Shown one piece after another: positions 3,766-64,000 of a DNA stretch of 64,000 bases. Numbering within the stretch: the first letter of the stretch is position 1; each line of letters starts with the position of its first letter. The notes under the pieces were generated by a model. The model saw only the letters and a list, made by a program, of their open reading frames with translations, was not told where the DNA came from and did no database searches. A program made the translations under genes and the position numbers. The stretch comes from Candidatus Woesearchaeota archaeon (GTDB lineage: Archaea; Nanobdellota; Nanobdellia; Woesearchaeales; GW2011-AR4), in contig NZDH01000004.1 in NCBI GenBank assembly GCA_002688775.1, positions 123,420 through 187,419 on the forward strand. Reading direction: 5' to 3'.

Positions 3766-5043
3766 ATGCTTGAATTCCTCAAAAAAATCTTTCTGACAGA
3801 TGTGGAAGAAGAAGTTAAAAAACCATTAACAGAGATTAATCTGCAAAATCTGGAAGAATGGATAAATGAGAAGATAAAGCCGTTGACTGAGGAAATAAAC
3901 CAAAAATCAAAAGAAGTTCTAATGAAAGTAAATGAAGAAGTTCAAAGGACAAGATTTAATCTTGAAGTCCTTGAAAATTCTAAATTGCAGAACCCAAATA
4001 TCCCTTTCAGGGCAAAACAATACATGGAAGGCAACAGGAAGGCCTATATGAAATCAATTAATGGTTTTCTAGGCCGTATGGAGATAAACAACAATGATTA
4101 TTTTTATCTTGTTAATTTTTGCAAGGAATTTGATGAACTGATGGATGTGCTTAACAAATCTACCTTGAAAAGCTATACAATACTCCAGGAATTTTTTGCT
4201 AATGAGACGATCAAGATCGCACAGAACCTCAAGAATTTTGACACGCTTTTCAAAGAATTGAAATCTGCGCTTAATAATGATATGGTAGTAGCTGCCAACA
4301 AATCAAAAGAAAAAATCCAGAGGTTAATAGCAAAGACAAAGCAAAAAATAAATCTTGATGTTGACTTCAAAAGTCTGGAGGCTAATGTCAAGCTTGCAAA
4401 TGATGAAAAAAACAAAATAATGGAGGAAATTGATAAATTCAATGACAGCGAGGAGCATAAGAATTTTCTGAATCTACAGGAAGAGAAGAAAAATAAGGAA
4501 AACAGCTTTCAAAATGATGAAAATCAAATATTGCAGTCTTTTGCTGTACTGGACAGGCCTTTGAGAAAATACTCCCATGTTGTTTTTGAGCATGAAGAGA
4601 TTGTCCTGGATTACATAAAGCATCCGATTGAAGCACTGGCCAGCGATAAAGAGCTAAAGATCACAGAAGTTCTGAAAAATTTGGAGAAAAAGCTTAATGA
4701 GAACAAACTTCAGCTGGATGACAAGAAAAAAGAAAAGGCGCTGGATGAGGTAAAGAAGCTGAACAAGGAATTCATTGAGCAATTCTTGAAAAAATATTCC
4801 ACATTCAAGTCAGAAATTGAGAATTTGGACAATAAAATGAAAGTAACAAGAGTTGCAGATAAATTAAAAGAGCTTAACAAGAAGCTTGAGGAAGCCAATT
4901 CAACGATTGAAAAAAGCACCAAAGATTTCGAGCAGCTAAAGAATGAAACCGCCAAAGCAGAAACTGCTGTTTCAGAACTTAAGGATGAAGTCGAGGAATC
5001 TATAAAAAGAATATTTGCAGAAAGTATTAAGGTTGCAGTTTGA
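3766..5043 (+). CDS. Hypothetical coiled-coil protein
   Basis: 425 aa, Lys/Glu/Leu-rich with heptad-like composition throughout. No catalytic motif recognised. Confidence 0.5.
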   Translation: MLEFLKKIFLTDVEEEVKKPLTEINLQNLEEWINEKIKPLTEEINQKSKEVLMKVNEEVQRTRFNLEVLENSKLQNPNIPFRAKQYMEGNRKAYMKSINGFLGRMEINNNDYFYLVNFCKEFDELMDVLNKSTLKSYTILQEFFANETIKIAQNLKNFDTLFKELKSALNNDMVVAANKSKEKIQRLIAKTKQKINLDVDFKSLEANVKLANDEKNKIMEEIDKFNDSEEHKNFLNLQEEKKNKENSFQNDENQILQSFAVLDRPLRKYSHVVFEHEEIVLDYIKHPIEALASDKELKITEVLKNLEKKLNENKLQLDDKKKEKALDEVKKLNKEFIEQFLKKYSTFKSEIENLDNKMKVTRVADKLKELNKKLEEANSTIEKSTKDFEQLKNETAKAETAVSELKDEVEESIKRIFAESIKVAV

Positions 5044-15883: not shown

Positions 15884-15984
15884 GCGCCGGTAGCTCAGCT
15901 TGGATAGAGCGTCTGAATTCATTGACGAACCTCCTATTCTTGGGTGAGAGCAGAAGGTCGGGAGTTCGAATCTCCCCCGGCGCG
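15884..15984 (+). tRNA. Class-I tRNA with a 26-nt intervening sequence in the anticodon arm; anticodon unresolved (only TCA or TGA possible)
   Basis: Acceptor GCGCCGG/CCGGCGC, D arm GCTC-AGCTTGGATA-GAGC, variable AGGTC, T arm GGGAG-TTCGAAT-CTCCC. TATA-like TTTATAAA lies about 30 nt upstream. Confidence 0.8.
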
Positions 15985-19572: not shown

Positions 19573-22203
19573 TTATCCCATATAGCCTGGCTTTTCATCC
19601 AGCATTTGCTTTGCTCTTGCTGATGTTAATTGCTGCTGCAATTCTTGGTAATAACTTTCCACATCTTTTGTAACGCTTGGCCTGACTTTTTGAAGAGCCA
19701 GATCGAAATGCCTTCTAAGGATGACTTTTGAATTGATGTTCTCCCTTAGAGTAAGAATAGCAGCTTCTCTGCAAACTGCTTCAATATCAGCACCAACATA
19801 GCCTTCTGTTTTCTTAGCCAGTGACTTTAAGATTTCCTCTTTGCTCTTTATTTCCTTTTTATCTGAAATTGATGTAGTGGCGTTTTCAAATTCCATCCCA
19901 GTTGCAGGACTGCCACTTTTTGCTACAGTCTTTGTGGCTATCATTTTCTTTTGTTTTACCTTTTCTTCTTGTGCACTTATGCTAATTGGCATTCCTTTTG
20001 TATGGACCTTGAAAATCTCAAATCTTGATTTTTCATCAGGTATAGATGTTAAAATCATCCTATCAAACCTACCTGGCCTTAATAATGCAGTATCCACTAT
20101 GTCTGGCCTGTTGGTAGCAGCGATAACAATCACATCTTGCAGATCTTCCAAGCCATCAATTTCTGTAAGCAATTGATTTACAACCCTTTCACTTACATGA
20201 CTGTCCGAGCTTGCGCCTCGCTTTGGAGCTAATGAATCAAGTTCGTCAAAGAAAATAATACATGGGCTTACCTGCCTGGCTTTCTTGAAAACTTCCCGTA
20301 CAGCTTTTTCACTTTCACCAACCCATTTTGACAGAAGTTCAGGACCTTTAACGCTGATGAAATTCGCTTCGCTTTCATTTGCAACAGCCTTTGCCAGTAA
20401 TGTCTTTCCTGAACCAGGAGCACCATACAATAAAATACCTCTTGGTGGCCTTACACCCAATCTCTTGAAAGATTCTGGATGTTTCAAAGGCCATTCAACA
20501 GCCTCTATCAACTCTTGTTTTAAATTATCCAGGCCGCCGATGTCAAACCATTTTATATTAGGTATTTCAACAAGAACTTCCCTTAATGCACTTGGCCTTA
20601 CAACCTTCAAAGCCTCTTTAAAATCATGCTGCGTTAATATAAGTTTTTCAAGCAATTCCTTTGGCAATGGTTCATCTTCTTTTAATCTTAAATCAGGCAG
20701 GGCCTTACGCAGTACAATCATAGCAGCTTCTTTAGCTAATGAGGATAAGTCAGCTCCAACAAAACCATGTGTTACTTCAGATAGTTCCTTAAGAGAAACC
20801 AATTTTGTTTCATGGGACAATTTTTCCATATGTCTTTTTAGCTTTGATATATCAATTTTCTTGAATAGCTCATTTTTTTCAGGATTATCCACAAGATATT
20901 TGTTTATTGTTCTTTCTAAGTTTCTTGAATTGGTATCTTTGTATCTTAATAAATTGAAAACTGCCTCTTTGTATTCCTGCTCAAAATCACTGTCTTTTAC
21001 AATGTTTTCTTTTGTATACATTGGCATGTTTCTTGTGTGGATTTTAAGAATATTAAGCCTGCCCTCTGTACCTGGAACACCGATTTCTATTTCCCTATCA
21101 AATCGTCCTGGTCTTCTTAACGCAGGGTCAAGGATATTTGGCACGTTTGTTGCTGCAATGACAACAACTTTGCCTCTTGACTGCAGGCCATCCATCAAAG
21201 CAAGCATTTGAGCAACAACTCTTCTCTCAACTTCACCCCTTGTCTCTTCCCTTTTGGATGCAATTGCATCAATCTCATCAATAAAAATTATGGAAGGCGC
21301 ATTTTTCTCTGCTTCCTCAAATTTTTTTCTTAAGTTTTCTTCTGATTGGCCATAATATTTGCTCATAATCTCAGGCCCATTGATCAATAGAAAATGTGAA
21401 TTTGTCTCGTTTGCAACAGCCTTCGCCAGCAAAGTCTTTCCAGTTCCCGGAGGGCCGTGCAATAAAACACCTTTTGGAGCTTCGATTCCGAGTCTTTCGA
21501 ATATTTCAGGATGTTTTAATGGGAGTTCAACCATCTCTCTGACTTTTTTAATTTCATCCTGCAAGCCACCAACATCTTCGTAAGTTATATCGGGAACTCT
21601 TTCTTCATCAATTTCAACAGCTTCTGACCTGAATTCAATCTCTGTTTGATCTAAGATAATAACAGGCTGCTTTGGACTAGTGTCAACAACAACAAATTTT
21701 ATGTCTCCGAAACCAATGCCCATCATGCTTTCATCAAGAATACTAAAAATATCCTCATCAAAAAAAGGATTATTCATCATTGTTGATTTACGCCTTCTTG
21801 CACCACCTAATGAGACTATGTCACCTTTTACAACAGCCCTTCCAAGAAGTCCCTGCTTGAAAATTTCAGAAGAAGCCCTTATGACAATTCCCTTTCTTGC
21901 AGGAGCAATAATGATCTTTTTGGCCTCTTTTACAAGAGCTTTTCTTATCTTTACTATCTCTCCTATGCCTGTTTTGCCGTTCTTTCTTACGATGCCGTCC
22001 ATCCTTATGATGTTCAATCCAATATCGCCAGGGTAAGATCTGTCAGCAATAGCAACTGTTTTTCTTTCGCCTTCTATCTCAACTATGTCTCCTGGTTTTA
22101 TGTCTACCTCTGCCAAGTATCCCGAGTCAATCCTGACTATTCCCTTGTTTACGTCATCTTGAATAGCCTCTGCTACCTTTAGTTTGAGTTCCTTTTCTGG
22201 CAT
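19573..22203 (-). CDS. cdc48: CDC48/VCP-type AAA+ ATPase (two ATPase domains), with two lineage-specific insertions
   Basis: N-domain ([23 protein letters not shown]) and two Walker A sites ([16 protein letters not shown]). 876 aa, against about 730-750 as usual. Confidence 0.95.
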
Positions 22204-22265
22204 TTTATTACTTTCAGATAGATAACAGTTTTATAAATCTTTTGTTTCAATTTATGAGAAGAATC

Positions 22266-22694
22266 CTATCCAATATAATTCTTATCTGGAACTGCCACCT
22301 GCACTTTGGGCATTGGAATTGGCGGGGGTAAATTAACCTGCTGACTTAGTATCAACGCCTGTATATTGCATTTTGTAAGTATTGTATTAAGCATGCCTGC
22401 CATAATCTCTTTTGGTAATTTTTTGTCTTTTTTCCAAGAATTTAGTATTTCCTTATTCTTTTTTGGATCCTGCATATACAAAAGCTCTCCCTCAAATAAT
22501 ATTGTAGCGACAGATGGTTCATATTTTGATGTGAACTCAAATACAAATTTCAAGACGTTTTGCTTGTCCTTGCCTAAAGAAAAATTATCTTGTGTAACAT
22601 CCTTAATCTTTACATTGTTATTTATATCAATCTTGCCTTTTGCTTTTTCTTTCTTTTCAACACTTAGTTTTGTGAAACCGAATCCAACTATCAT
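22266..22694 (-). CDS. Hypothetical protein
   Basis: 142 aa ORF with a plausible start and coding-like composition. No motif recognised. Confidence 0.45.
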   Translation of the reverse strand: MIVGFGFTKLSVEKKEKAKGKIDINNNVKIKDVTQDNFSLGKDKQNVLKFVFEFTSKYEPSVATILFEGELLYMQDPKKNKEILNSWKKDKKLPKEIMAGMLNTILTKCNIQALILSQQVNLPPPIPMPKVQVAVPDKNYIG

Positions 22695-22738
22695 TTTAAT
22701 TTTAGGTTTATAATGATATATATAAATGTTATTGATGA

Positions 22739-24496
22739 TTAACTCTTTTTTTGAGAGGCATACAATTCTTTAACATACAGCAAATTAGAAGCATTTCTGG
22801 AGCCTTTGTCCTCTCTAACTTGGATGATCCTCGGAAATCTGAGCGAATATCCTGAGCTAGAAGTCGGAGATTTCTGTATTTCTTCATAACCTACCTCAAT
22901 GACGATTTTTGGCTTTATTTTGACTTCTTTTCCTTTTTCGCTTATGATTAACGGCTTGAGCAGCTTTGTCATTTCTTCAAAACTTAGTCCTTCTTCCTTT
23001 TTCTCCTTCAATCCAGTGCTTGCCTTGCCAATCTCAAGATATCCTCCCTGATCAACGCAAGCTATATGATAACTGCTCAACCATCTGGCCCTCTTGCCTT
23101 CCCCCCACTCAGCACCTACAATTACTAAATCAAGCGTGTCCATTATGTGCTTGAATTTAACCATATAACCGACTCTTGCGCCTGGTTTGTAAGGTGATTT
23201 AAGCGATTTAAACATCAAACCTTCATTTCCTGCGTTCACTGATTCCTTGAAAAATTTTTCAACATCGTGACTGTTGCTAGTTGTTTTATTTTTTGAACAA
23301 ACGATTTTTTTAGGTTCATGTTTGACTATTTTCTCAATCAACTTTCTCCTTTTTTCAAATTCCTCATTAAGCAAGTTCTTTCCCTGGTAATTAATGACAT
23401 CAAAAACATTTAACTCCACTGGAAAATCTTTTGACATTTTGTCAATGTCATATTTTCTCTTGATTCTTTGAGAAATGTTCTGGAAAGGTAAGTATTGTCC
23501 AGTCTTTTTGCTGTATCCAACTGCCTCAGAATCTATAATGAAACTCTTGCCCTTGACATATTTTTTGATGAATTCAACTGCATCTGGAAATTGTTTTGTG
23601 ACATCCTCTAATCTTCTGGTGAATAATCTTATATTTCCATGGTGGTCTTTGTGAGCCTGAATTCTAAAGCCGTCATACTTGAATTCAATTGCAGCTGGCT
23701 TTCCGACTGTCTCAAATCCCTCTTCTACAGTATCAACTTTCAAAGCCAGCATAACCTGAATTGGAATGCCTACTTTCATCTCTATGTTTTCAAGTCCTTT
23801 CAATCCATGTGTTTTTGCAGCTTTTACAACTACAGAAAATTCGTTTGTAACATCATATGCGCTTTGCACTGCATCTAAGTATTTGTTATAGACTTCTCTG
23901 TCTTCAACTTCAATGTCATTTTCCTCTTTTGTGTATTTTACTCCAATTTTATCGTTGAAGAAAGCCCATGTAATCGCATCACGCATTACCCCTTCTCCGA
24001 CACCGATGCGCATTACTCCAAGAATAGTCTTGACAATGTATTTTGCTTCCAAAGGTTTTGATGATGTCAGGAGTTCTGCTATCAACTGAGTTTTTCTATC
24101 AACAGTGCCTTGCCCTTCAAGTTCCGCAAGTTTTCTTATATTATCAAATACTTTCTTTAAGTTTAACTTTGTGGAGTGTAAAGTGGCTTGTTTTTTTGTC
24201 TTAATCAAAGATTCAGCAACCAAACCTAAGTCTCCTTTCTTTTTCCATTCTTTTTCTATTTTATCAACAGTTGTTCCGGTTGCAATATTGATTGCTTTCA
24301 GCATCAACCTGGATGCGACTCCAGTTTCTCTTGGATCATAATTTGGAAAAGCCCTGCCTTCTAAAAGGAGCATTACATGCTCTATATCATCCAGGTGCAC
24401 ATTTTTCAAGAATTCTGAGATTACATGAGTCTTTTCAAGCCTTTTTGTGGTCTTGTTTAAATCTTCGTAGATCTCGACTAATTTAGAGTATTCCAT
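22739..24496 (-). CDS. lig: ATP-dependent DNA ligase
   Basis: Motif I EFKYDGFRIQ (active-site Lys) and the C-terminal LRFPRI motif. 585 aa. Confidence 0.95.
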   Translation of the reverse strand: MEYSKLVEIYEDLNKTTKRLEKTHVISEFLKNVHLDDIEHVMLLLEGRAFPNYDPRETGVASRLMLKAINIATGTTVDKIEKEWKKKGDLGLVAESLIKTKKQATLHSTKLNLKKVFDNIRKLAELEGQGTVDRKTQLIAELLTSSKPLEAKYIVKTILGVMRIGVGEGVMRDAITWAFFNDKIGVKYTKEENDIEVEDREVYNKYLDAVQSAYDVTNEFSVVVKAAKTHGLKGLENIEMKVGIPIQVMLALKVDTVEEGFETVGKPAAIEFKYDGFRIQAHKDHHGNIRLFTRRLEDVTKQFPDAVEFIKKYVKGKSFIIDSEAVGYSKKTGQYLPFQNISQRIKRKYDIDKMSKDFPVELNVFDVINYQGKNLLNEEFEKRRKLIEKIVKHEPKKIVCSKNKTTSNSHDVEKFFKESVNAGNEGLMFKSLKSPYKPGARVGYMVKFKHIMDTLDLVIVGAEWGEGKRARWLSSYHIACVDQGGYLEIGKASTGLKEKKEEGLSFEEMTKLLKPLIISEKGKEVKIKPKIVIEVGYEEIQKSPTSSSGYSLRFPRIIQVREDKGSRNASNLLYVKELYASQKKS

Positions 24497-44388: not shown

Positions 44389-44787
44389 TCATTTATAAAG
44401 CTTTCTTTCAACCAATTTGAGGTATTTTTTCTGCCTTAGTATAATAACCGAAGAGCCCTTGTCAAGCACTTTGTTTTTAAGTTCCATATCCTGAGTTGCA
44501 ATAATAGTATCTTTATCTAGGTTTTCCAATATCAATGAATCAACATATTGTTCATCGGATCTGATCATGCCTATATTTTTTGATTTGATCAGTTTAAGCG
44601 CTATCTGAGCTGCTTTTTTGTTTTTTCCCTTTTGGTTTGAGATTATTTTTTTTAATTCATTGATTGATGATTCAAAAACAAATAGTTTGTAATTGAAATT
44701 GCAGATTCTATTGAATTCTGAGAATATATCTACTTTGAATTGCATGGGGATTAATAGGAAGTTTGTGTCTAAGATTATTTTTTTCAT
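44389..44787 (-). CDS. PIN-domain nuclease (Fcf1/Utp24-like, COG1412-type)
   Basis: MKKIILDTNFLL...ATQDMELK carries the PIN acidic residues. I start at Met63 of the track ORF because the upstream part overlaps a structured RNA. Confidence 0.75.
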   Translation of the reverse strand: MKKIILDTNFLLIPMQFKVDIFSEFNRICNFNYKLFVFESSINELKKIISNQKGKNKKAAQIALKLIKSKNIGMIRSDEQYVDSLILENLDKDTIIATQDMELKNKVLDKGSSVIILRQKKYLKLVERKLYK

Positions 44788-44860
44788 TAAGATTGAGATT
44801 AAAGCTGTGGATATAAATATTTCTATTCTGTAAAATAAAATTGTAAAATATACATTTGTC

Positions 44861-44992
44861 AGAAAAATTCCAACAACAAAGGGTTCAAATACGGGTTTTC
44901 TTCGTGAAAACCCTATTCGCAAAGGAAAAATCCGAACTATGTAACGGATTTTCCCTCTGCACTCAATTTTCACCCATTGTTGGAATTTTTCT
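44861..44992 (+). ncRNA. Three-way-junction RNA, copy 1 (unclassified family; second copy at 63414-63546)
   Basis: Closing stem GAAAAATTCCAACAA/TTGTTGGAATTTTTC and hairpins GGGTTTTC/GAAAACCC and GGAAAAATCCG/CGGATTTTCC. Junction strands match copy 2 while the helices covary. 3' T-tract. Confidence 0.65.
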
Positions 44993-45059
44993 TTAATAAA
45001 GTGGATAGTTAGAAAGTGTACTTAACATATTAAAAACGTTTTTAAATAAAGTTAGTTGC

Positions 45060-46199
45060 TTGCAATATATGAAAGGTCTAGCCATCACATCAAAGGGTAT
45101 TGAGGAAACTGCCTGTACAGAGATAAAGGAACTGATAAATTCCAGATGCAAGGCAGAGGAAGGCTGTGTTAGTTTTGATTTCAAAAAATTTGAGGATTTG
45201 TGTTTGTTATGCTACAAATCACAGTCTGTTGACAGGGTATTGTATTTGATTGACAGTCTTGAGTTTAAGGATTTTTTTGACGAGTTTGAAACTTTCATTG
45301 AAAAATTAGATATAGATAAATGGCTCAGTAAAGACAAAAAATTCAAAGTTGAATGTATCAGGTTAGGCAAGCATGACTTTAAAAGCGTGGATGTTGAAAA
45401 GAAAGCTGCAGACTTGATCGTAAAAAAATATAAGGAGGATAATATTAAAGTGGGTCTGAAGAATAATGACCTCATCTTTTTTGTTTACATAATCAATGAT
45501 AAATGTTATTTTGGGATAGATTTTTCAGGATTTGAGCTGAATAAAAGACCCTATAAGATTTTTTTGCATCCCAATTCTTTAAGAGGGACTGTTGCTTATT
45601 CATTAATAAGAGAAAGCGGATTTAAGAAAAACAAGGTTATGCTTGATCCATTTTCAAGGGATGGGGTCATTTCGATAGAAACTGCGGTTTATGCAACTGG
45701 ATTTCCAACTAATTATTTCAAAAAGGACAGGTTTGCATTTTTGAGATTAGATCTTGGTATTGATTCTGAAAAATTCTTTGATAAAATTGATAAAAAGATA
45801 AAAAAATCAAAATTAGGAATTTATAGCTATGATTATTTGTTTAAGTTTGTTGATTATTCTAAAAAAAATGCCAAAATTGCCGGTGTTGACAAACAAATCA
45901 ATTTCAGCAGAGTTGAGCTGGAATGGCTTGATATAAAATTTAAGGAAAATAGCGTTGATGTAATAATAACAAACCCCCCAACTTCAAAAAATACAAATTT
46001 GGATAAGATCTACAATGAGTTTTTTTATCAATGTGAATACATATTAAAGAAAGATGGATTGATTGCAATAATTTCCAGAGTTACTGATTTTGCCAAGGAA
46101 AAGGCTTCAAAACACAATTTTATTGTTTCAAAAGAGAAAGATGTATGGAGCGGCGGGCAATTGCTTAAAATCGTAGTTTTTAAAAAGAAAAGTATATAA
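45060..46199 (+). CDS. THUMP-domain RNA (guanine-N2) methyltransferase, Trm14/RlmL-like
   Basis: N-terminal THUMP-like region and a C-terminal Rossmann methyltransferase with the VIITNPP motif. The likely start is MKGLAITS at 45069. Confidence 0.6.
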   Translation: MQYMKGLAITSKGIEETACTEIKELINSRCKAEEGCVSFDFKKFEDLCLLCYKSQSVDRVLYLIDSLEFKDFFDEFETFIEKLDIDKWLSKDKKFKVECIRLGKHDFKSVDVEKKAADLIVKKYKEDNIKVGLKNNDLIFFVYIINDKCYFGIDFSGFELNKRPYKIFLHPNSLRGTVAYSLIRESGFKKNKVMLDPFSRDGVISIETAVYATGFPTNYFKKDRFAFLRLDLGIDSEKFFDKIDKKIKKSKLGIYSYDYLFKFVDYSKKNAKIAGVDKQINFSRVELEWLDIKFKENSVDVIITNPPTSKNTNLDKIYNEFFYQCEYILKKDGLIAIISRVTDFAKEKASKHNFIVSKEKDVWSGGQLLKIVVFKKKSI

Positions 46200-46565: not shown

Positions 46566-46944
46566 GGCAAGGGTTAGTACTTAGCTTCGGCAATGTGATT
46601 GCTGAGGAAAGTCCGCCCACTACAACCGCAAAATCGGTTGACGCTTTGCGGGACATTCGCTATCGCGAAGTCCCGAGTAGCCACTCACGGAAGTGAGCTC
46701 TAGAAAATAGAGGGCAACCACTCAGAAACGAGACCGCCTTAAAGGAGCATGATGTGGAGAAGGATTTGGTGACAAATCTGAGATAACCCACTGACATTCT
46801 TTTAGGAATGGGTGAAACGGTGAGTCCTGGCTGGTGCAAGTCAATGGTCTAGTACCAGACGCTTAGTTTAATGCTAAGACAGGCTATCGCAATGCAAATA
46901 TTGCACTTAGGGCCTGACAAAAGGCGGCTTACTCTAACCCTGCC
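46566..46944 (+). ncRNA. rnpB: RNase P RNA (archaeal type A-like)
   Basis: P1 GGCAAGGGTTAG.../...CTAACCCTGCC, CR-I GAGGAAAGTCCGCCC and the CR-V-like ACAAAAGGCGGCTTAC. GC-rich island with a TATA-like box about 30 nt upstream. Confidence 0.9.
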
Positions 46945-50088: not shown

Positions 50089-50199
50089 GACCGCGGGCGA
50101 GAATCGAACTCGCGCCAAGCGGATTTCAAAGCAAGATGACAACCCTAAGTTGCAACCAGCTACCACAACCGCTTATTCTACCATTAAACTACCGCAGTC
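50089..50199 (-). tRNA. tRNA-His (anticodon GTG) with encoded G-1 and a 39-nt intron after position 37
   Basis: Sense strand: G-1, ACTGCGG/CCGCGGT acceptor, anticodon stem AGCGG/CCGCT, loop TTGTGG|intron, T arm GCGAG-TTCGATT-CTCGC, discriminator C. Confidence 0.85.
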
Positions 50200-52801: not shown

Positions 52802-52909
52802 GCGGGGGTGGCAGAGCCTGGCCAAATGCGCAAATTCATGATAAATGGAGTGGATGGTTGAGGGCCTTGTCCCTTAGTGGGTGCGAGGGTTCGAATCCCT
52901 TCCCCCGCA
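52802..52909 (+). tRNA. tRNA-Leu (anticodon GAG) with a 22-nt intron at non-canonical position 29/30
   Basis: Class II tRNA. Acceptor GCGGGGG/CCCCCGC, variable arm TCCCTTAGTGGGTGC. Removing 52834-52855 yields CAAGG-TTGAGGG-CCTTG. Confidence 0.85.
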
Positions 52910-54348: not shown

Positions 54349-55278
54349 ATGAACTCGTATAGAAATCAAAAAATTTGTTTGAAAGAATTGTATTGGAATA
54401 AACATATGTCAACATCACAAATTGGAAGAATATATAATTGTAACGCTGAAACAATTCGCAGATATATGATTAAATTTGGAATTGATAGAAGAAAGTTACA
54501 TGAAAGAAAATATAAAATATCAAAGAAACAGTTAGAAAATTTGTATCTTAAAAAAAGATTATCTATTATAGAAATTGCTAGGAAATATGGCTGTTCTCAA
54601 TGGGTAATTTGGTCTCTACTTAGATACCATAGGATAAGAGCAAGAGGCACTAATGATTATCATTCATGGAAGGCCCCTGCTAATCAAATTAAGCCATCTT
54701 TAGAGGTTACTTCAACTCTTGCGTACGTTATAGGTGTTATTTTAGGAGATGGTTGGGTTTACAAAAGAGGCTATTGGTATACTATAGGTTTAGAAGCATT
54801 AGATAAAAAATTTTGTGAAAGTTTTTACCATGCGTTAAAGCAATTGAAAATTAATCCTTCAATTTTTCATAGTAGAAACTATTGGAGAGTTGTATGTTCC
54901 TCAAAATTATTTTATATATGGTTCAAATCTTTAGATTTTAATAAAATAAAGGAAATTTCCGAAAAATATCCTATAGATTTCTTAAGAGGTTTCTATGAAA
55001 GCGAAGGAAATTTCTCTACTTATAAAAGTAAGAAATATTTTTTTATAACATACAAAATAACTATTGTGAATACTGATAAAAAACTTATCGATTTAGTAAA
55101 ATTTTTATTAGATAGATTAGGTTTCCATCCTACATATCATAAGAGAAATCAGTTAAAATCAAATTGGAAGCCACTTTGGGCTTTAACTTTGTGTAGAAAA
55201 TTGGAGGTTAAGCAATTCATTCAATTGATAAAACCCTGTATCAAAACTGGAGAGAGAAGGCGCAGTAGAAACATTTAA
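54349..55278 (+). mobile_element. Free-standing LAGLIDADG homing-endonuclease-like gene with two N-terminal HTH repeats
   Basis: Two LAGLIDADG motifs (LAYVIGVILGDGW and FLRGFYESEGNF). Duplicated N-terminal HTH units of about 45 aa. Inserted between rps9 and rpoN. Confidence 0.8.
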
Positions 55279-62250: not shown

Positions 62251-63381
62251 ATGAAATACAAAATCGCTGTTTTTGCAGGAGATGGTGTAGGGCCTGAGCT
62301 GATAGATGAAGGCATCAAGGTAATTGAAAAAGCAGCTGAGCTTGACAAGTTTGAGATTGAATGGGTGAAATATCCACATGGTGCAGAGCATTTCAGTGAA
62401 ACAAAGGAATCGCTGTCGAATAAAGCCTTGAAGGAGATAAAAGATTCATGCAAATCAGTTTATTGCGGCACATTCGATAATTCTAAAAACGGAAATGCTG
62501 CTGAAAATAATGTCTCATCTGCCATAAAAAATTATTTCGACCAGTTTGTGAGCCTGAGACCTATAAGACTACTTCCAAATGTGCAAAGCCCGCTTAACGG
62601 CAAAACAGACAAGGAGATTGATTTTACTGTAATCAGGGAGAATACAGAGGATTTCTATAGCGGGATCAACGGCAGAGTGAAGAACGGCAAGAATAAGCAT
62701 CAGTTTGATTTGAACAATAGCACATTGAAAGCTAAATTCGGGCTGAATGTGGAGGCAAAAGGCGGCGAGATGGCCTATCAGATAGGTGTTTTGAGTAAAA
62801 AGGGGTGTGAAAGGGTCATCAAGTTCGCTTTCGAATATGCAAAAAGCAAGAACAAGAAAAAAATTGCGGCTGTCGACAAGGCAAATATGATCGAATGCTA
62901 CGATTTTTGGAGGGAAAATGTCAATAAAGTTTCAAAAGGCTATGGCGACATCAAATGTGAATTTGAGTTTATTGATGCAGCTGTGATGAATTTCATAAGG
63001 CAGCCCGAGAAATATGAAGTCATAATCGCCCCTAACATGTTCGGGGATATTTTAGGTGATTTAGGGACAGTGATGCAGGGAAGTCTGGCTGTTGCAGCAA
63101 GAGGAAATATCAATCCAGGGGGAATTTCAATGTTCGAGCCTGTCCATGGGAGCGCTCCCGGACTAAAAGAAAAAGGTGTTGTAAATCCGATCGCAACTAT
63201 CTGGGCAGGGGCGATGATGCTCGACAACATAGGGCAGCAAAAATCAGCTGACCTGATGATAAAGTCCATTGAATATGTGCTAAAGGGAGGCAAAACGATG
63301 ACTCTGGATCTGGGCGGCAACAACTCGACATCTGAGATGGGAGATGCAATCAAAGATAAATTTATTGAATTGCACGATTGA
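62251..63381 (+). CDS. Isocitrate/isopropylmalate/tartrate dehydrogenase family protein
   Basis: KIAVFAGDGVGPE, IRENTEDFYSG, APNMFGDILGDL and EPVHGSAP motifs. Substrate not assignable from sequence alone. Confidence 0.85.
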   Translation: MKYKIAVFAGDGVGPELIDEGIKVIEKAAELDKFEIEWVKYPHGAEHFSETKESLSNKALKEIKDSCKSVYCGTFDNSKNGNAAENNVSSAIKNYFDQFVSLRPIRLLPNVQSPLNGKTDKEIDFTVIRENTEDFYSGINGRVKNGKNKHQFDLNNSTLKAKFGLNVEAKGGEMAYQIGVLSKKGCERVIKFAFEYAKSKNKKKIAAVDKANMIECYDFWRENVNKVSKGYGDIKCEFEFIDAAVMNFIRQPEKYEVIIAPNMFGDILGDLGTVMQGSLAVAARGNINPGGISMFEPVHGSAPGLKEKGVVNPIATIWAGAMMLDNIGQQKSADLMIKSIEYVLKGGKTMTLDLGGNNSTSEMGDAIKDKFIELHD

Positions 63382-63413
63382 AAAAGAGTTGTTTTGATAA
63401 TTATATCCTATTT

Positions 63414-63546
63414 AGAAAGATAATAACAACAAGGGATTCAAACACGGCTTTTCTTGGTGAAAAGCCTATTCGCAAAGTAAATTTCCACACTGTGTATGGA
63501 AATTTACTCTGCACTCAATTTTCATCCAGGTTGTTACCTTTTCTTC
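63414..63546 (+). ncRNA. Three-way-junction RNA, copy 2 (same family as 44861-44992)
   Basis: Hairpins GGCTTTTC/GAAAAGCC and GTAAATTTCCA/TGGAAATTTAC with stem TAACAAC/GTTGTTA. The junction strands TATTCGCAAAG and CTCTGCACTCAATTTTCA match copy 1 exactly. Confidence 0.65.
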
Positions 63547-63607
63547 GAAGTCTAAAACAAATGCGAAGATACATATATTTAAATACGAAATTTGATTCTA
63601 TTTCTAT

Positions 63608-64000
63608 ATGAAACTTGATAAAATCCTGGTTGTGTATACCAATCCAACAACCAATGAGTACAGATTGACACTGGGTAAAGTCAAGAAAGTACTGAAAAAA
63701 TACAGGGCTAAGTATAATCTTGCTAATAGGGACAAGCTTAAAGATATCCAGTTTGAAAACCATGACCTGGTGATTGCTGTTGGGGGAGATGGGACTTTCT
63801 TAAGAGCTGCCCAGTTTGTCAAAAATCAGCTTATATTAGGAGTGAATGCAGATGTCAAGAACAAAGAAGGCTTTTTTATGCAGAGCGATAAAAAAAATTT
63901 TGAAGCCAGATTAAGAAAGATAATCAAGAACAAATTCAAGATAAAAAAGCTGCATAGGCTGGAAGCTTACATAAACAATAAGAAAATCGAGAATCCTGCG
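63608..64000 (+). CDS. nadK: NAD kinase (5' part, runs off the window; not in the ORF track)
   Basis: My translation is MKLDKILVVYTNP...HDLVIAVGGDGTFLRAAQF, with the GGDGT motif. A TATA-like box lies about 25 nt upstream. Confidence 0.8.
   Translation, partial: MKLDKILVVYTNPTTNEYRLTLGKVKKVLKKYRAKYNLANRDKLKDIQFENHDLVIAVGGDGTFLRAAQFVKNQLILGVNADVKNKEGFFMQSDKKNFEARLRKIIKNKFKIKKLHRLEAYINNKKIENPA

Follow-up and report, generated by a model that had tools for sequence, protein, structure and literature searches.

A three-way-junction sequence that occurs twice in the 64-kb stretch of DNA analysed here (the window) raises the question of what these loci encode and from which strand. The initial annotation regarded them as small-RNA genes read from the plus strand. 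The fold, the relatives of the two copies and their genomic settings were examined computationally, and the structure was found on the opposite strand.

Two copies and the strand that carries the fold

The window is archaeal, with an archaeal RNase P RNA at 46571–46940, intron-bearing tRNAs and a G+C content of about 35%. It belongs to a marine Candidatus Woesearchaeota MAG, its THUMP protein being 100% identical to CMO83_01880. The two stretches originally proposed, 44861–44992 (copy A) and 63414–63546 (copy B), are correctly placed and can be aligned over their full length, with identity in 88% of 134 columns. They are the only copies in the window, and two covariance models run with filters off find no further copy there, including copies of the second variant (type 2, see below). 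The 18-mer CTCTGCACTCAATTTTCA occurs window-wide only at 44955–44972 and 63507–63524; allowing up to three mismatches, its chance expectation is 0.12. Every helix listed in the initial annotation is present, and the differences between the copies keep the pairing. P2 is GGGTTTTC/GAAAACCC in copy A versus GGCTTTTC/GAAAAGCC in copy B, the inner P1 is GGGT/ACCC versus GGAT/ATCC, and the P3 arms and the outer P1 are likewise compensatory.

The choice of the plus strand did not survive the analysis. Compared with dinucleotide shuffles, folding gives z scores of −8.0 (copy A) and −6.0 (copy B) on the plus strand and −9.2 and −8.1 on the minus strand. The minimum free energy (MFE) on the minus strand is −61.0 versus −49.3 kcal/mol for copy A and −51.7 versus −40.0 kcal/mol for copy B. 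The helix mismatches on the plus strand are all A·C, and the same positions are G·U on the minus strand; the symmetric TC/TC of the plus strand corresponds to a tandem GA/GA loop. Covariance model scores are 101 and 96 bits on the minus strand and at most 25 on the plus strand. The same asymmetry extends to the family, in which 127 of 128 distinct cores fold better on the strand corresponding to the window's minus strand (mean gain 8.4 kcal/mol), and in helix columns unconstrained by the search pattern G·U and U·G total 46 versus 8 for A·C and C·A. Relatives also lie in the 16S–23S spacers of at least four distinct rRNA operons (L028/L103, L018, L081, L122, L050), every one on the rRNA sense strand and co-oriented with 16S and 23S. 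Because of this co-orientation, a single transcript of the operon would contain the element in the minus-sense orientation. We conclude that the element is very probably encoded by the minus strand of the window. Its features are as follows.

44861–44992, minus strand: copy A, full element of type 1, outer helix plus 97-nt core (101.3 bits, E = 7e-25; MFE −61.0 kcal/mol, z = −9.2)
44880–44976, minus strand: copy A core, covariance model positions 1–97 (P1a, GA/GA loop, P1b, three-way junction, P3, P2)
44977–44992, minus strand: copy A outer helix, 5′ strand AGAAAAAUUCCAACAA with the A-run (from the fold; the outer helix covaries family-wide)
44861–44879, minus strand: copy A outer helix, 3′ strand UUGUUGUUGGAAUUUUUCU with the U-tract at its end (fold and family covariation)
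44919–44960, minus strand: copy A long arm P3, base GCAGAG/CUUUGC with the family-wide G·U, A-U/U-A run and apical AC-AUA-GU (fold and alignment)
44961–44965, minus strand: copy A internal-loop module, 5′ side UGAGU, with predicted non-canonical pairing to GAAUA at 44914–44918 (GAGU/GAAU is rotated in type-2 copies)
44914–44918, minus strand: copy A internal-loop module, 3′ side GAAUA (variant comparison)
44893–44913, minus strand: copy A short arm P2, GGGUUUUC-ACGAA-GAAAACCC (helix 98.6% paired, seven of eight pairs covarying)
45041–45048, no strand assigned: near-palindromic TATA box TTTAAATA of the divergent THUMP gene, 49–56 nt upstream of copy A on the minus strand
63414–63546, minus strand: copy B, full element of type 1 (95.9 bits, E = 2e-23; MFE −51.7 kcal/mol, z = −8.1)
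63433–63528, minus strand: copy B core, covariance model positions 1–97 with one deletion
63472–63512, minus strand: copy B long arm P3 (fold and alignment)
63446–63466, minus strand: copy B short arm P2, GGCUUUUC-ACCAA-GAAAAGCC (fold and alignment)
63578–63585, no strand assigned: near-palindromic TATA box TTTAAATA of the divergent NAD-kinase gene, 32–39 nt upstream of copy B on the minus strand

Fold, variants and covariation of the family

On the minus strand the element folds into a compact Y, which consists of a terminal helix closed by a 5′ A-run and a 3′ U-run, P1a, a GA/GA or GC/GC step, P1b and the three-way junction. In copy A, AGAAAAAUUCCAACAA (44992–44977) pairs with UUGUUGG..AAUUUUUCU (44879–44861) to form the outer helix, followed inward by P1a (GGGU/ACCC), the tandem GA/GA, P1b (AAAU/AUUU) and the junction. 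UGAGU (44965–44961) precedes P3 (44960–44919) and lies opposite GAAUA (44918–44914); the modelled pairs may be read as U-A, G·U, A·A, G·A and U·G. The initial annotation had described conserved single-stranded junctions. The strings in question are indeed identical in the two copies, but most of them are helical or in non-canonical pairs rather than single-stranded: they form P1b (AAAU/RUUU), the tandem GA/GA loop, a 2 × 2 purine loop between G·U pairs and the base of P3. Only about two junction bases are unpaired, G-U at 44892–44891 in copy A.

P3, the 5′ arm, begins with the 2 × 2 purine loop bracketed by G·U wobbles and continues into AGAG/CUUU with a near-invariant G·U. In about 99% of copies, five consecutive pairs of this arm are A-U or U-A, with free exchange between the two; G-C almost never occurs there, although the route passes via the tolerated G·U, which suggests selection for weak pairs or for a particular helix shape. 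The tip of P3 is a conserved AC-RNA-GU, with the triloop GAA in 75 of about 125 copies. P2, the 3′ arm, is an 8-bp hairpin with an A-rich pentaloop. About 20 bases are near-invariant, and these are concentrated in the junction and internal loops between freely covarying stems. The outer helix varies in sequence and length between copies and covaries across the family (UUCC/GGAA, AUAA/UUAU, CCAC/GUGG and others), with a median energy of −13.6 versus −8.5 kcal/mol in mismatched controls. Large insertions are tolerated at the P2 and P3 tips and outside the core, and an accessory hairpin may occupy any of three insertion points.

Two main variants were distinguished in the first set of copies, type 1 with UGAGU...CGAAUA (n = 59) and type 2 with CGAAU...UGAGUA (n = 25). 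Their four-pair blocks, GAGU/GAAU in type 1 and GAAU/GAGU in type 2, are the same block rotated by 180°, from which we infer a structural role or a two-fold symmetric contact and not a directional active site. A third internal-loop variant occurs among 28 copies outside the search pattern. The GA/GA loop (n = 68) alternates with GC/GC (n = 31) across the family.

The family was collected in steps of decreasing stringency. A strict three-block pattern, searched in one genome per species, matched 13 stretches; ten were chance matches in bacteria and three were real, in a Woesearchaeota MAG, a Nanoarchaeota MAG and a contig binned as Methanosarcinales, which we suspect to be misbinned. At two of these three loci the second variant lies on the opposite strand. 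A second pattern, built from the columns common to both variants, gave at least 117 stretches in metagenomes, mostly from groundwater. With model R1 (97 positions, 41 pairs) the family comprises at least 150 copies (106 + 44) in Woesearchaeota and Nanoarchaeota genomes and in groundwater or marine metagenomes.

The initial annotation had suggested a covariance model and a search for homologues; both were carried out, and the additional homologues covary at the proposed pairs. In the 106-copy alignment, double-sided changes affect 26 of the 41 pairs (526 cells), 89.9% of cells are paired and none of 500 column shuffles reaches any observed covariation measure; a second, independent set of copies reproduces the covariation, both alignments having been fitted to the model and so being somewhat biased toward the structure. 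When the partners are slid by one to three columns the signal collapses. The first seven sequences, aligned with MAFFT and analysed with RNAalifold, show 16 covarying pairs out of 34 and almost no broken pairs, and the 28 copies outside the search pattern keep AGAG/CUUU with its G·U, while neighbouring pairs covary (C-G to G-C or A-U). What these results show is a conserved, branched nucleic-acid fold that is specific to one strand and maintained by purifying selection across many DPANN genomes, and we are highly confident that it represents a real structured RNA family.

Copies on the same contig are only 53–80% identical, no closer than random pairs (median 71%), and none of 29 such pairs exceeds 80%. 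The closest relatives of copy A, 95% identical, are found in other organisms and other contexts, and copy A has an identical score in four assemblies of the window's species from different samples. Judged from their sequences, copies A and B are two diverged, old paralogues of one RNA family.

Neighbouring genes, promoters and arrangement of copies

According to Pfam, copy A lies between a PIN_9 gene (minus strand, 44392–44787) and a THUMP/UPF0020 methyltransferase gene (plus strand, ATG 45069), so that its intergenic region is divergent and neither gene reads into the element. Copy B lies between a gene of the isocitrate/isopropylmalate-dehydrogenase family and the NAD-kinase gene (ATG 63608), both on the plus strand. 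Both copies are antisense to the THUMP and NAD-kinase genes to which they had been linked, and each of these genes is preceded by a TATA box of its own, about 25 nt from the ATG (45041–45048 and 63578–63585), in agreement with the earlier view that the element is not their 5′ leader. These two boxes may serve as shared bidirectional promoters for minus-strand transcription, as their near-palindromic sequence would allow. The TATA-like boxes (44845–44854 and 63400–63407) and the T-tract reported on the plus strand are present; they do not single out that strand, since the A-run/T-run of the outer helix is symmetric and gives the minus strand equivalent features. At copy A, the plus-strand box coincides with the promoter place of a plus-strand ORF of 60 aa found in relatives (see below). 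Across 39 free-standing members, a strict and a soft scan, each anchored in two ways, find no TATA box at a fixed offset on either strand and no asymmetry of the two. Plus-strand small-RNA genes with their own TATA box and T-tract, or a riboswitch-like leader of the THUMP and NAD-kinase genes, are hardly probable at all: both copies do have an AWTATA box at an equal upstream offset and a T-tract, and the plus strand also folds significantly better than shuffles, but all strand tests favour the minus strand, the box is 10–16 nt from the helix and too near for an archaeal TATA box starting transcription at the helix, no fixed box exists family-wide, and the genes downstream of the at least 150 copies are unrelated.

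When 350 flanking ORFs were clustered, no protein family was linked to more than five loci among the matches listed. The largest cluster, at five loci and within about 600 nt, is an Xer-like recombinase; a DDE transposase or Xer-like gene is found nearby at three to five of about 120 loci (up to 20 kb around each copy). The gene on the 5′ side of the element is on the opposite strand in 49 cases and co-oriented in 29, and this mostly divergent arrangement excludes a 3′ UTR feature. Of 79 downstream genes, 43 point the same way as the element. Independent small-RNA genes, as initially proposed, are plausible. Gene callers currently place spurious ORFs over the element. A coding ORF was considered and rejected: a plus-strand frame that is open through copy B (63378–63611) is interrupted in copy A by a TAA in the P3 loop; the copies differ by indels of 1 nt and of 40–75 nt, and their substitutions are pairwise compensatory.

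The site of copy A is occupied differently in relatives. In the THUMP neighbourhoods of six relatives (121 kb, 68–72% protein identity) no copy is found. In three of them (L133, L135 and L136) a conserved plus-strand ORF of 60 aa lies directly upstream of the THUMP gene; in L136 it fills the whole PIN–THUMP slot that copy A occupies in the window, and it is absent from the window. Relatives without a copy at the site indicate that new sites do become occupied, which would be expected of a mobile or cis-acting element and counts against a trans-acting RNA. Orthologous sites are kept with compensatory change, for example, in the L001/L053/L076/L036 group and in the rRNA-spacer group. The outer helix is an inverted repeat; no direct repeats are visible in the flanks, and the slots of relatives hold additional genes or the 60-aa ORF and not a clean empty site.

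Among the matches listed, about 20 loci carry two copies head-to-head with cores 7–41 nt apart, and no neighbouring copies are arranged tail-to-tail. Wherever both partners could be typed they are different variants, about 60% identical and thus less alike than random pairs. A different element of about 110 nt (X), with the same A-run/U-run closure, adjoins the 5′ side of the element in at least nine loci. X is assigned to the opposite strand by its G·U versus A·C counts and by its consensus energy (−23.8 versus −14.5 kcal/mol), so that this arrangement is also head-to-head. X is recognized neither by Rfam nor by the family models (two models, either strand, E ≤ 1), and in spite of its similar layout it was rejected as a family member. 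Some relatives, then, abut an RNA-like element without room for a promoter and others sit in a 16S–23S spacer. In the head-to-head pairs and X loci the 5′ ends are separated by 4–41 nt, too little for conventional archaeal promoters. The spacer copies, placed just after a tRNA-Ala-like sequence (identified by eye) and before 23S, do not have the terminal U-tract of the free-standing copies; if the operon is one transcript, they are embedded in a longer precursor, the pre-rRNA.

Proposed function, alternatives and known systems

At about even confidence, we favour a stable, structured, trans-acting non-coding RNA that is putatively protein-bound. Transcription of a free-standing unit, perhaps from the bidirectional TATA region of the divergent neighbour, would begin near the A-run and stop at the U-tract, and the terminal helix would seal off both ends of the product. 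For spacer copies the source would be the pre-rRNA, provided that the operon is transcribed as a whole, and they would then be excised from it. The invariant G·U sites, the purine loop, the G-U junction and the tip would form a putative docking surface, most likely for a protein, and the product would be a stable ribonucleoprotein RNA acting in trans, perhaps tied to ribosome or stable-RNA metabolism. Several results count against this reading: the lack of a fixed-offset promoter on either strand, the closeness of the 5′ ends, and the lack of both a partner protein and any rRNA complementarity or similarity. We consider it unlikely, although worth stating, that the element is a catalytic or ribosome-linked RNA class specific to Nanobdellota/Woesearchaeota, either self-excising or part of a ribonucleoprotein needed by these reduced symbionts; such a class would be made with rRNA in some lineages and from heterotypic head-to-head pairs elsewhere.

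The alternatives (ALTERNATIVES) are an element that acts in cis on processing, stability or termination, a repeat that has become domesticated, a ribozyme of a new self-cleaving class and a site that works as single-stranded DNA. A cis-acting 'punctuation' element, to which we give a minority chance, would direct or block nucleases or stop read-through between packed transcription units. Its presence in the pre-rRNA spacer after an apparent tRNA-Ala and before 23S would suit this role, as would the resemblance of the A-run/U-run helix of free-standing copies to a two-way terminator, the missing U-tract of spacer copies (expected if termination there is harmful), the lack of a detectable promoter of its own and the diverse contexts without a partner gene. 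However, a terminator or exonuclease block needs neither a three-way junction with invariant unpaired bases nor a conserved loop at its tip; co-oriented genes precede the element less often than divergent ones (29 versus 49), and no gene reads into the divergent intergenic region of copy A. The chance is smaller that the family is a selfish or domesticated structured repeat (MITE, SINE, REP or BIME) whose fold is kept for an RNA or single-stranded-DNA mobility intermediate. The copies are multiple and intergenic with terminal inverted repeats, their occupancy is patchy (no copy in the 121 kb of relatives, with a small ORF in the slot of copy A), their presence within the rRNA spacer can be counted as insertion, and an Xer-like recombinase or DDE transposase is near a few loci; the inverted pairs of two subtypes recall the Y and Z REPs of BIMEs. 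Against this stand the absence of recent bursts (no same-contig pair above 80% identity), flanks without visible target-site duplications, no consistently linked transposase, no copies on viral contigs (IMG/VR), and orthologous retention with compensatory change, including invariance in four population assemblies.

Dispersal, inverted pairs, embedding in precursors and conserved loop bases are habits of known self-cleaving classes. The element shares them, being dispersed in multiple copies and inverted pairs, found in pre-rRNA and adjoining the RNA-like X, with its near-invariant bases in junction and internal loops between covarying stems. Nevertheless, a new small self-cleaving class that trims host transcripts is improbable: no Rfam ribozyme matches even at E ≤ 10, and no cleavage site can be inferred. 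The internal loop with the strongest conservation, moreover, is turned by 180° in some copies and has a third form in others, which would hardly suit an active site at that place. A single-stranded-DNA site associated with recombination or replication is very improbable. G·T wobbles and sheared G·A also stabilize DNA hairpins, so that strand asymmetry alone is no proof of RNA; a single-stranded-DNA role predicts the same asymmetry, which counts against a stable trans-acting RNA. The head-to-head geometry amounts to a large imperfect palindrome, an Xer-like recombinase lies within about 600 nt at five loci, and no promoters were found. Every spacer copy, however, is co-oriented with rRNA, where transcription is expected; folded RNAs typically have such features as the conserved triloop and pentaloop and the expansion segments at the periphery; and there are no integron-like arrays or cassettes, with the recombinase rare among loci.

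Comparison with the 4227 models of Rfam 15 gave no match at the gathering score or at E ≤ 10 for either copy, in line with the initial failure to recognize a known family; the best sub-threshold scores are at most 22 bits versus thresholds of 40–155 and align to the P3 hairpin only. No description was found in the full-text literature searched, although a corpus outside the search may hold one. The element thus apparently represents a new, undescribed family of folded RNAs of about 100–130 nt, where 'new' refers to the family and not to a functional category. Several known classes were considered and rejected. Box C/D sRNAs are excluded by the absence of C (RUGAUGA) and D (CUGA) boxes from both copies, and H/ACA sRNAs by the absence of their boxes from both copies and of a large pocket in P3. 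The GA/GA step is not a K-turn, having no 3-nt bulge and being GC/GC in 31 copies. An rRNA guide or mimic was rejected since the 16S and 23S of L028 contain no sequence complementary or identical to the conserved loops, and blastn-short returns only chance 7–10-mers. The known self-cleaving ribozymes (hammerhead, twister, twister-sister, pistol, hatchet and HDV-like) do not match at E ≤ 10. A riboswitch or leader is at odds with the antisense orientation to THUMP and NAD kinase and with the lack of a recurrent gene set. For an integron attC site, CAACAAC/GTTGTTG fits RYYYAAC/GTTRRRY only partly, no integrase is consistently linked, there are no arrays, and an interval of 18.5 kb with ordinary genes separates the two window copies.

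To our knowledge, few structured non-coding RNA classes are established in archaea beyond rRNA, tRNA, RNase P, SRP RNA and guide sRNAs, and we know of almost none in DPANN archaea, whose biology has been inferred mainly from protein genes. The present family has at least 150 members and covariation support comparable to that of curated Rfam families, together with unusual traits: a module rotated by 180°, a five-pair A-U/U-A stretch, near-touching 5′ ends and residence in the 16S–23S spacer. Its covariance model can be used to annotate DPANN genomes, and the element is a defined target for metatranscriptomics and biochemistry. It also poses the puzzle of how archaeal RNA genes, head-to-head partners included, are expressed without promoter space.

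Several known systems share parts of this description. Like 5S rRNA, the element has about 120 nt, a three-way junction, a terminal helix formed by the 5′ and 3′ ends and an arm with a purine-rich non-canonical loop flanked by G·U in the manner of loop E; it can occupy the rRNA operon and can be multi-copy. In contrast to 5S rRNA, the loop-E-like arm is the 5′ one, the 5S consensus strings are absent and the element lies upstream, not downstream, of 23S. A divergent 5S rRNA was rejected on the reversed arm order, the lack of an RF00001 match at E ≤ 10 and the presence of conventional 5S in the clade, which was detected in 203 of 208 complete Nanobdellota genomes (bioRxiv 10.64898/2026.05.13.725050).

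With the structured intergenic repeats of bacteria (REP/BIME, ERIC, Rickettsia palindromic elements) and with MITEs, the element shares dispersed, intergenic imperfect palindromes in either orientation, inverted doublets of two subtypes and patchy sites among relatives. It differs from them in being archaeal and branched with invariant unpaired bases, in within-genome copies as diverged as the whole family, and in having no linked RAYT or transposase and no visible target duplication. Purine and TPP riboswitch aptamers and the hammerhead likewise have a three-way junction of no more than about 100 nt, in which the junction bases are conserved and the stems covary. The element, in contrast, matches no Rfam model, has no consistent downstream gene set, is antisense to THUMP and NAD kinase and does not contain the hammerhead core strings CUGANGA and GAAA.

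The element also resembles orphan structured non-coding RNAs (such as raiA, OLE and Y-RNA-like RNAs), which are likewise free-standing and non-coding, with an elaborate covarying fold, a terminal stem and a 3′ U-tract. It is distinguished from these by its DPANN hosts, the diverged paralogues in each genome, the heterotypic head-to-head pairs and the lack of an Rfam 15 match. Although it has no cloverleaf, no tRNA matches and no anticodon-like variable loop, the element resembles tRNA genes in behaviour: diverged paralogues are built on a fixed scaffold whose stems covary, copies reside in the 16S–23S spacer, adjoin RNA genes or are dispersed among unrelated genes, and orthologues of other genomes are the closest relatives.

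Open reading frames across the element and the slot of copy A

The three-way-junction element, a structured RNA family with two copies (A and B) in the window, is read straight through by mechanical ORFs at several sites:

window 63378-63611, + strand, mechanical ORF through the element
window 44389-44973, - strand, mechanical ORF through the element
L036:4130-4486, mechanical ORF through the element; others likewise

In L138, one gene call lengthens the PIN protein to 177 aa, across copy A. Therefore, public annotations probably contain false entries at the element sites, in the form of hypothetical proteins or N-terminal extensions. In relatives, a conserved, very basic 60-aa ORF (MIKKLKGKYVVLSETTGR...) lies directly upstream of the THUMP methyltransferase gene (L136:9780-9962, L135:9781-9963 and L133:9780-9962). 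The window is without this ORF, and the corresponding slot (44788-45068) is occupied by copy A instead.

Other RNA and gene features

A free-standing LAGLIDADG_3 ORF is found in the window's species between the genes for ribosomal protein S9 and RNA polymerase subunit N (window about 54406-55278, placed by correspondence with L137:19338-20210), and most of the compared relatives (L131-L133, L135) lack it. At window 46571-46940, the archaeal RNase P RNA carries several sizeable insertions and is 370 nt long, compared with the 288-position model. Long introns of 35-45 nt are present in the window tRNA genes at 15884-15984, 50089-50198 and 52802-52909, one of which scores 35.6 bits, barely above the tRNA threshold. 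At about 22000-24000 of the window the GC skew switches sign, with a cumulative-skew minimum near 22 kb; this switch could be a replication origin, a terminus or a shift in gene-strand bias.

Outside the window, a putative tRNA-Ala(UGC) was recognized by eye in a 16S-23S spacer (L028:4994-5135), where it is missed by ARAGORN and Rfam. By the same inspection, it has a G3.U70 pair and two introns, located in the anticodon loop and the T arm. The spacer also holds a possible small ORF (4536-4953).

Sequences flanking the copies and element X

Some copies of the three-way-junction element contain an accessory hairpin, (U/A)CGAAUGCGAGUGAxC...CUCGCUCACAU, inserted at one of three positions that differ between copies, which gives it the look of a portable peripheral module:

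3' of the core, L004:858-893, L023, L026, L077
5' of the core, L054, L056
tip of P2 (the short 3' arm), L037, L030, L113, L106

Just upstream of some copies lie two more conserved sequences, the hairpin GCAAGCACGAAGUGCAAUCUG and GAAAAGUUAUGACGCAGGCAUUUUUUCC, the latter ending in a U-tract (loci listed: L089, L092, L066, L062, L017, L052; and L056, L066, L017). Neither has an Rfam match, and they may be further unannotated RNAs.

At loci that are all outside the window, the three-way-junction element is directly adjoined on its 5' side by a second RNA-like element, element X (~110 nt):

L043:1500-1612
L061:1797-1911
L065:1411-1527
L033:3119-3233
further loci L038, L101, L114, L117, L125

The closing helix of element X is AAAAAAUCCAGCC...GGCUGGAUUUUUU, and the orientation of X is most likely head-to-head, on the opposite strand. 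Element X is detected neither by Rfam nor by the three-way-junction-element models; its layout is nevertheless similar to that of the three-way-junction element, with a GA-type loop, a three-way junction and GAGUAG before a GG-UUUUC hairpin.
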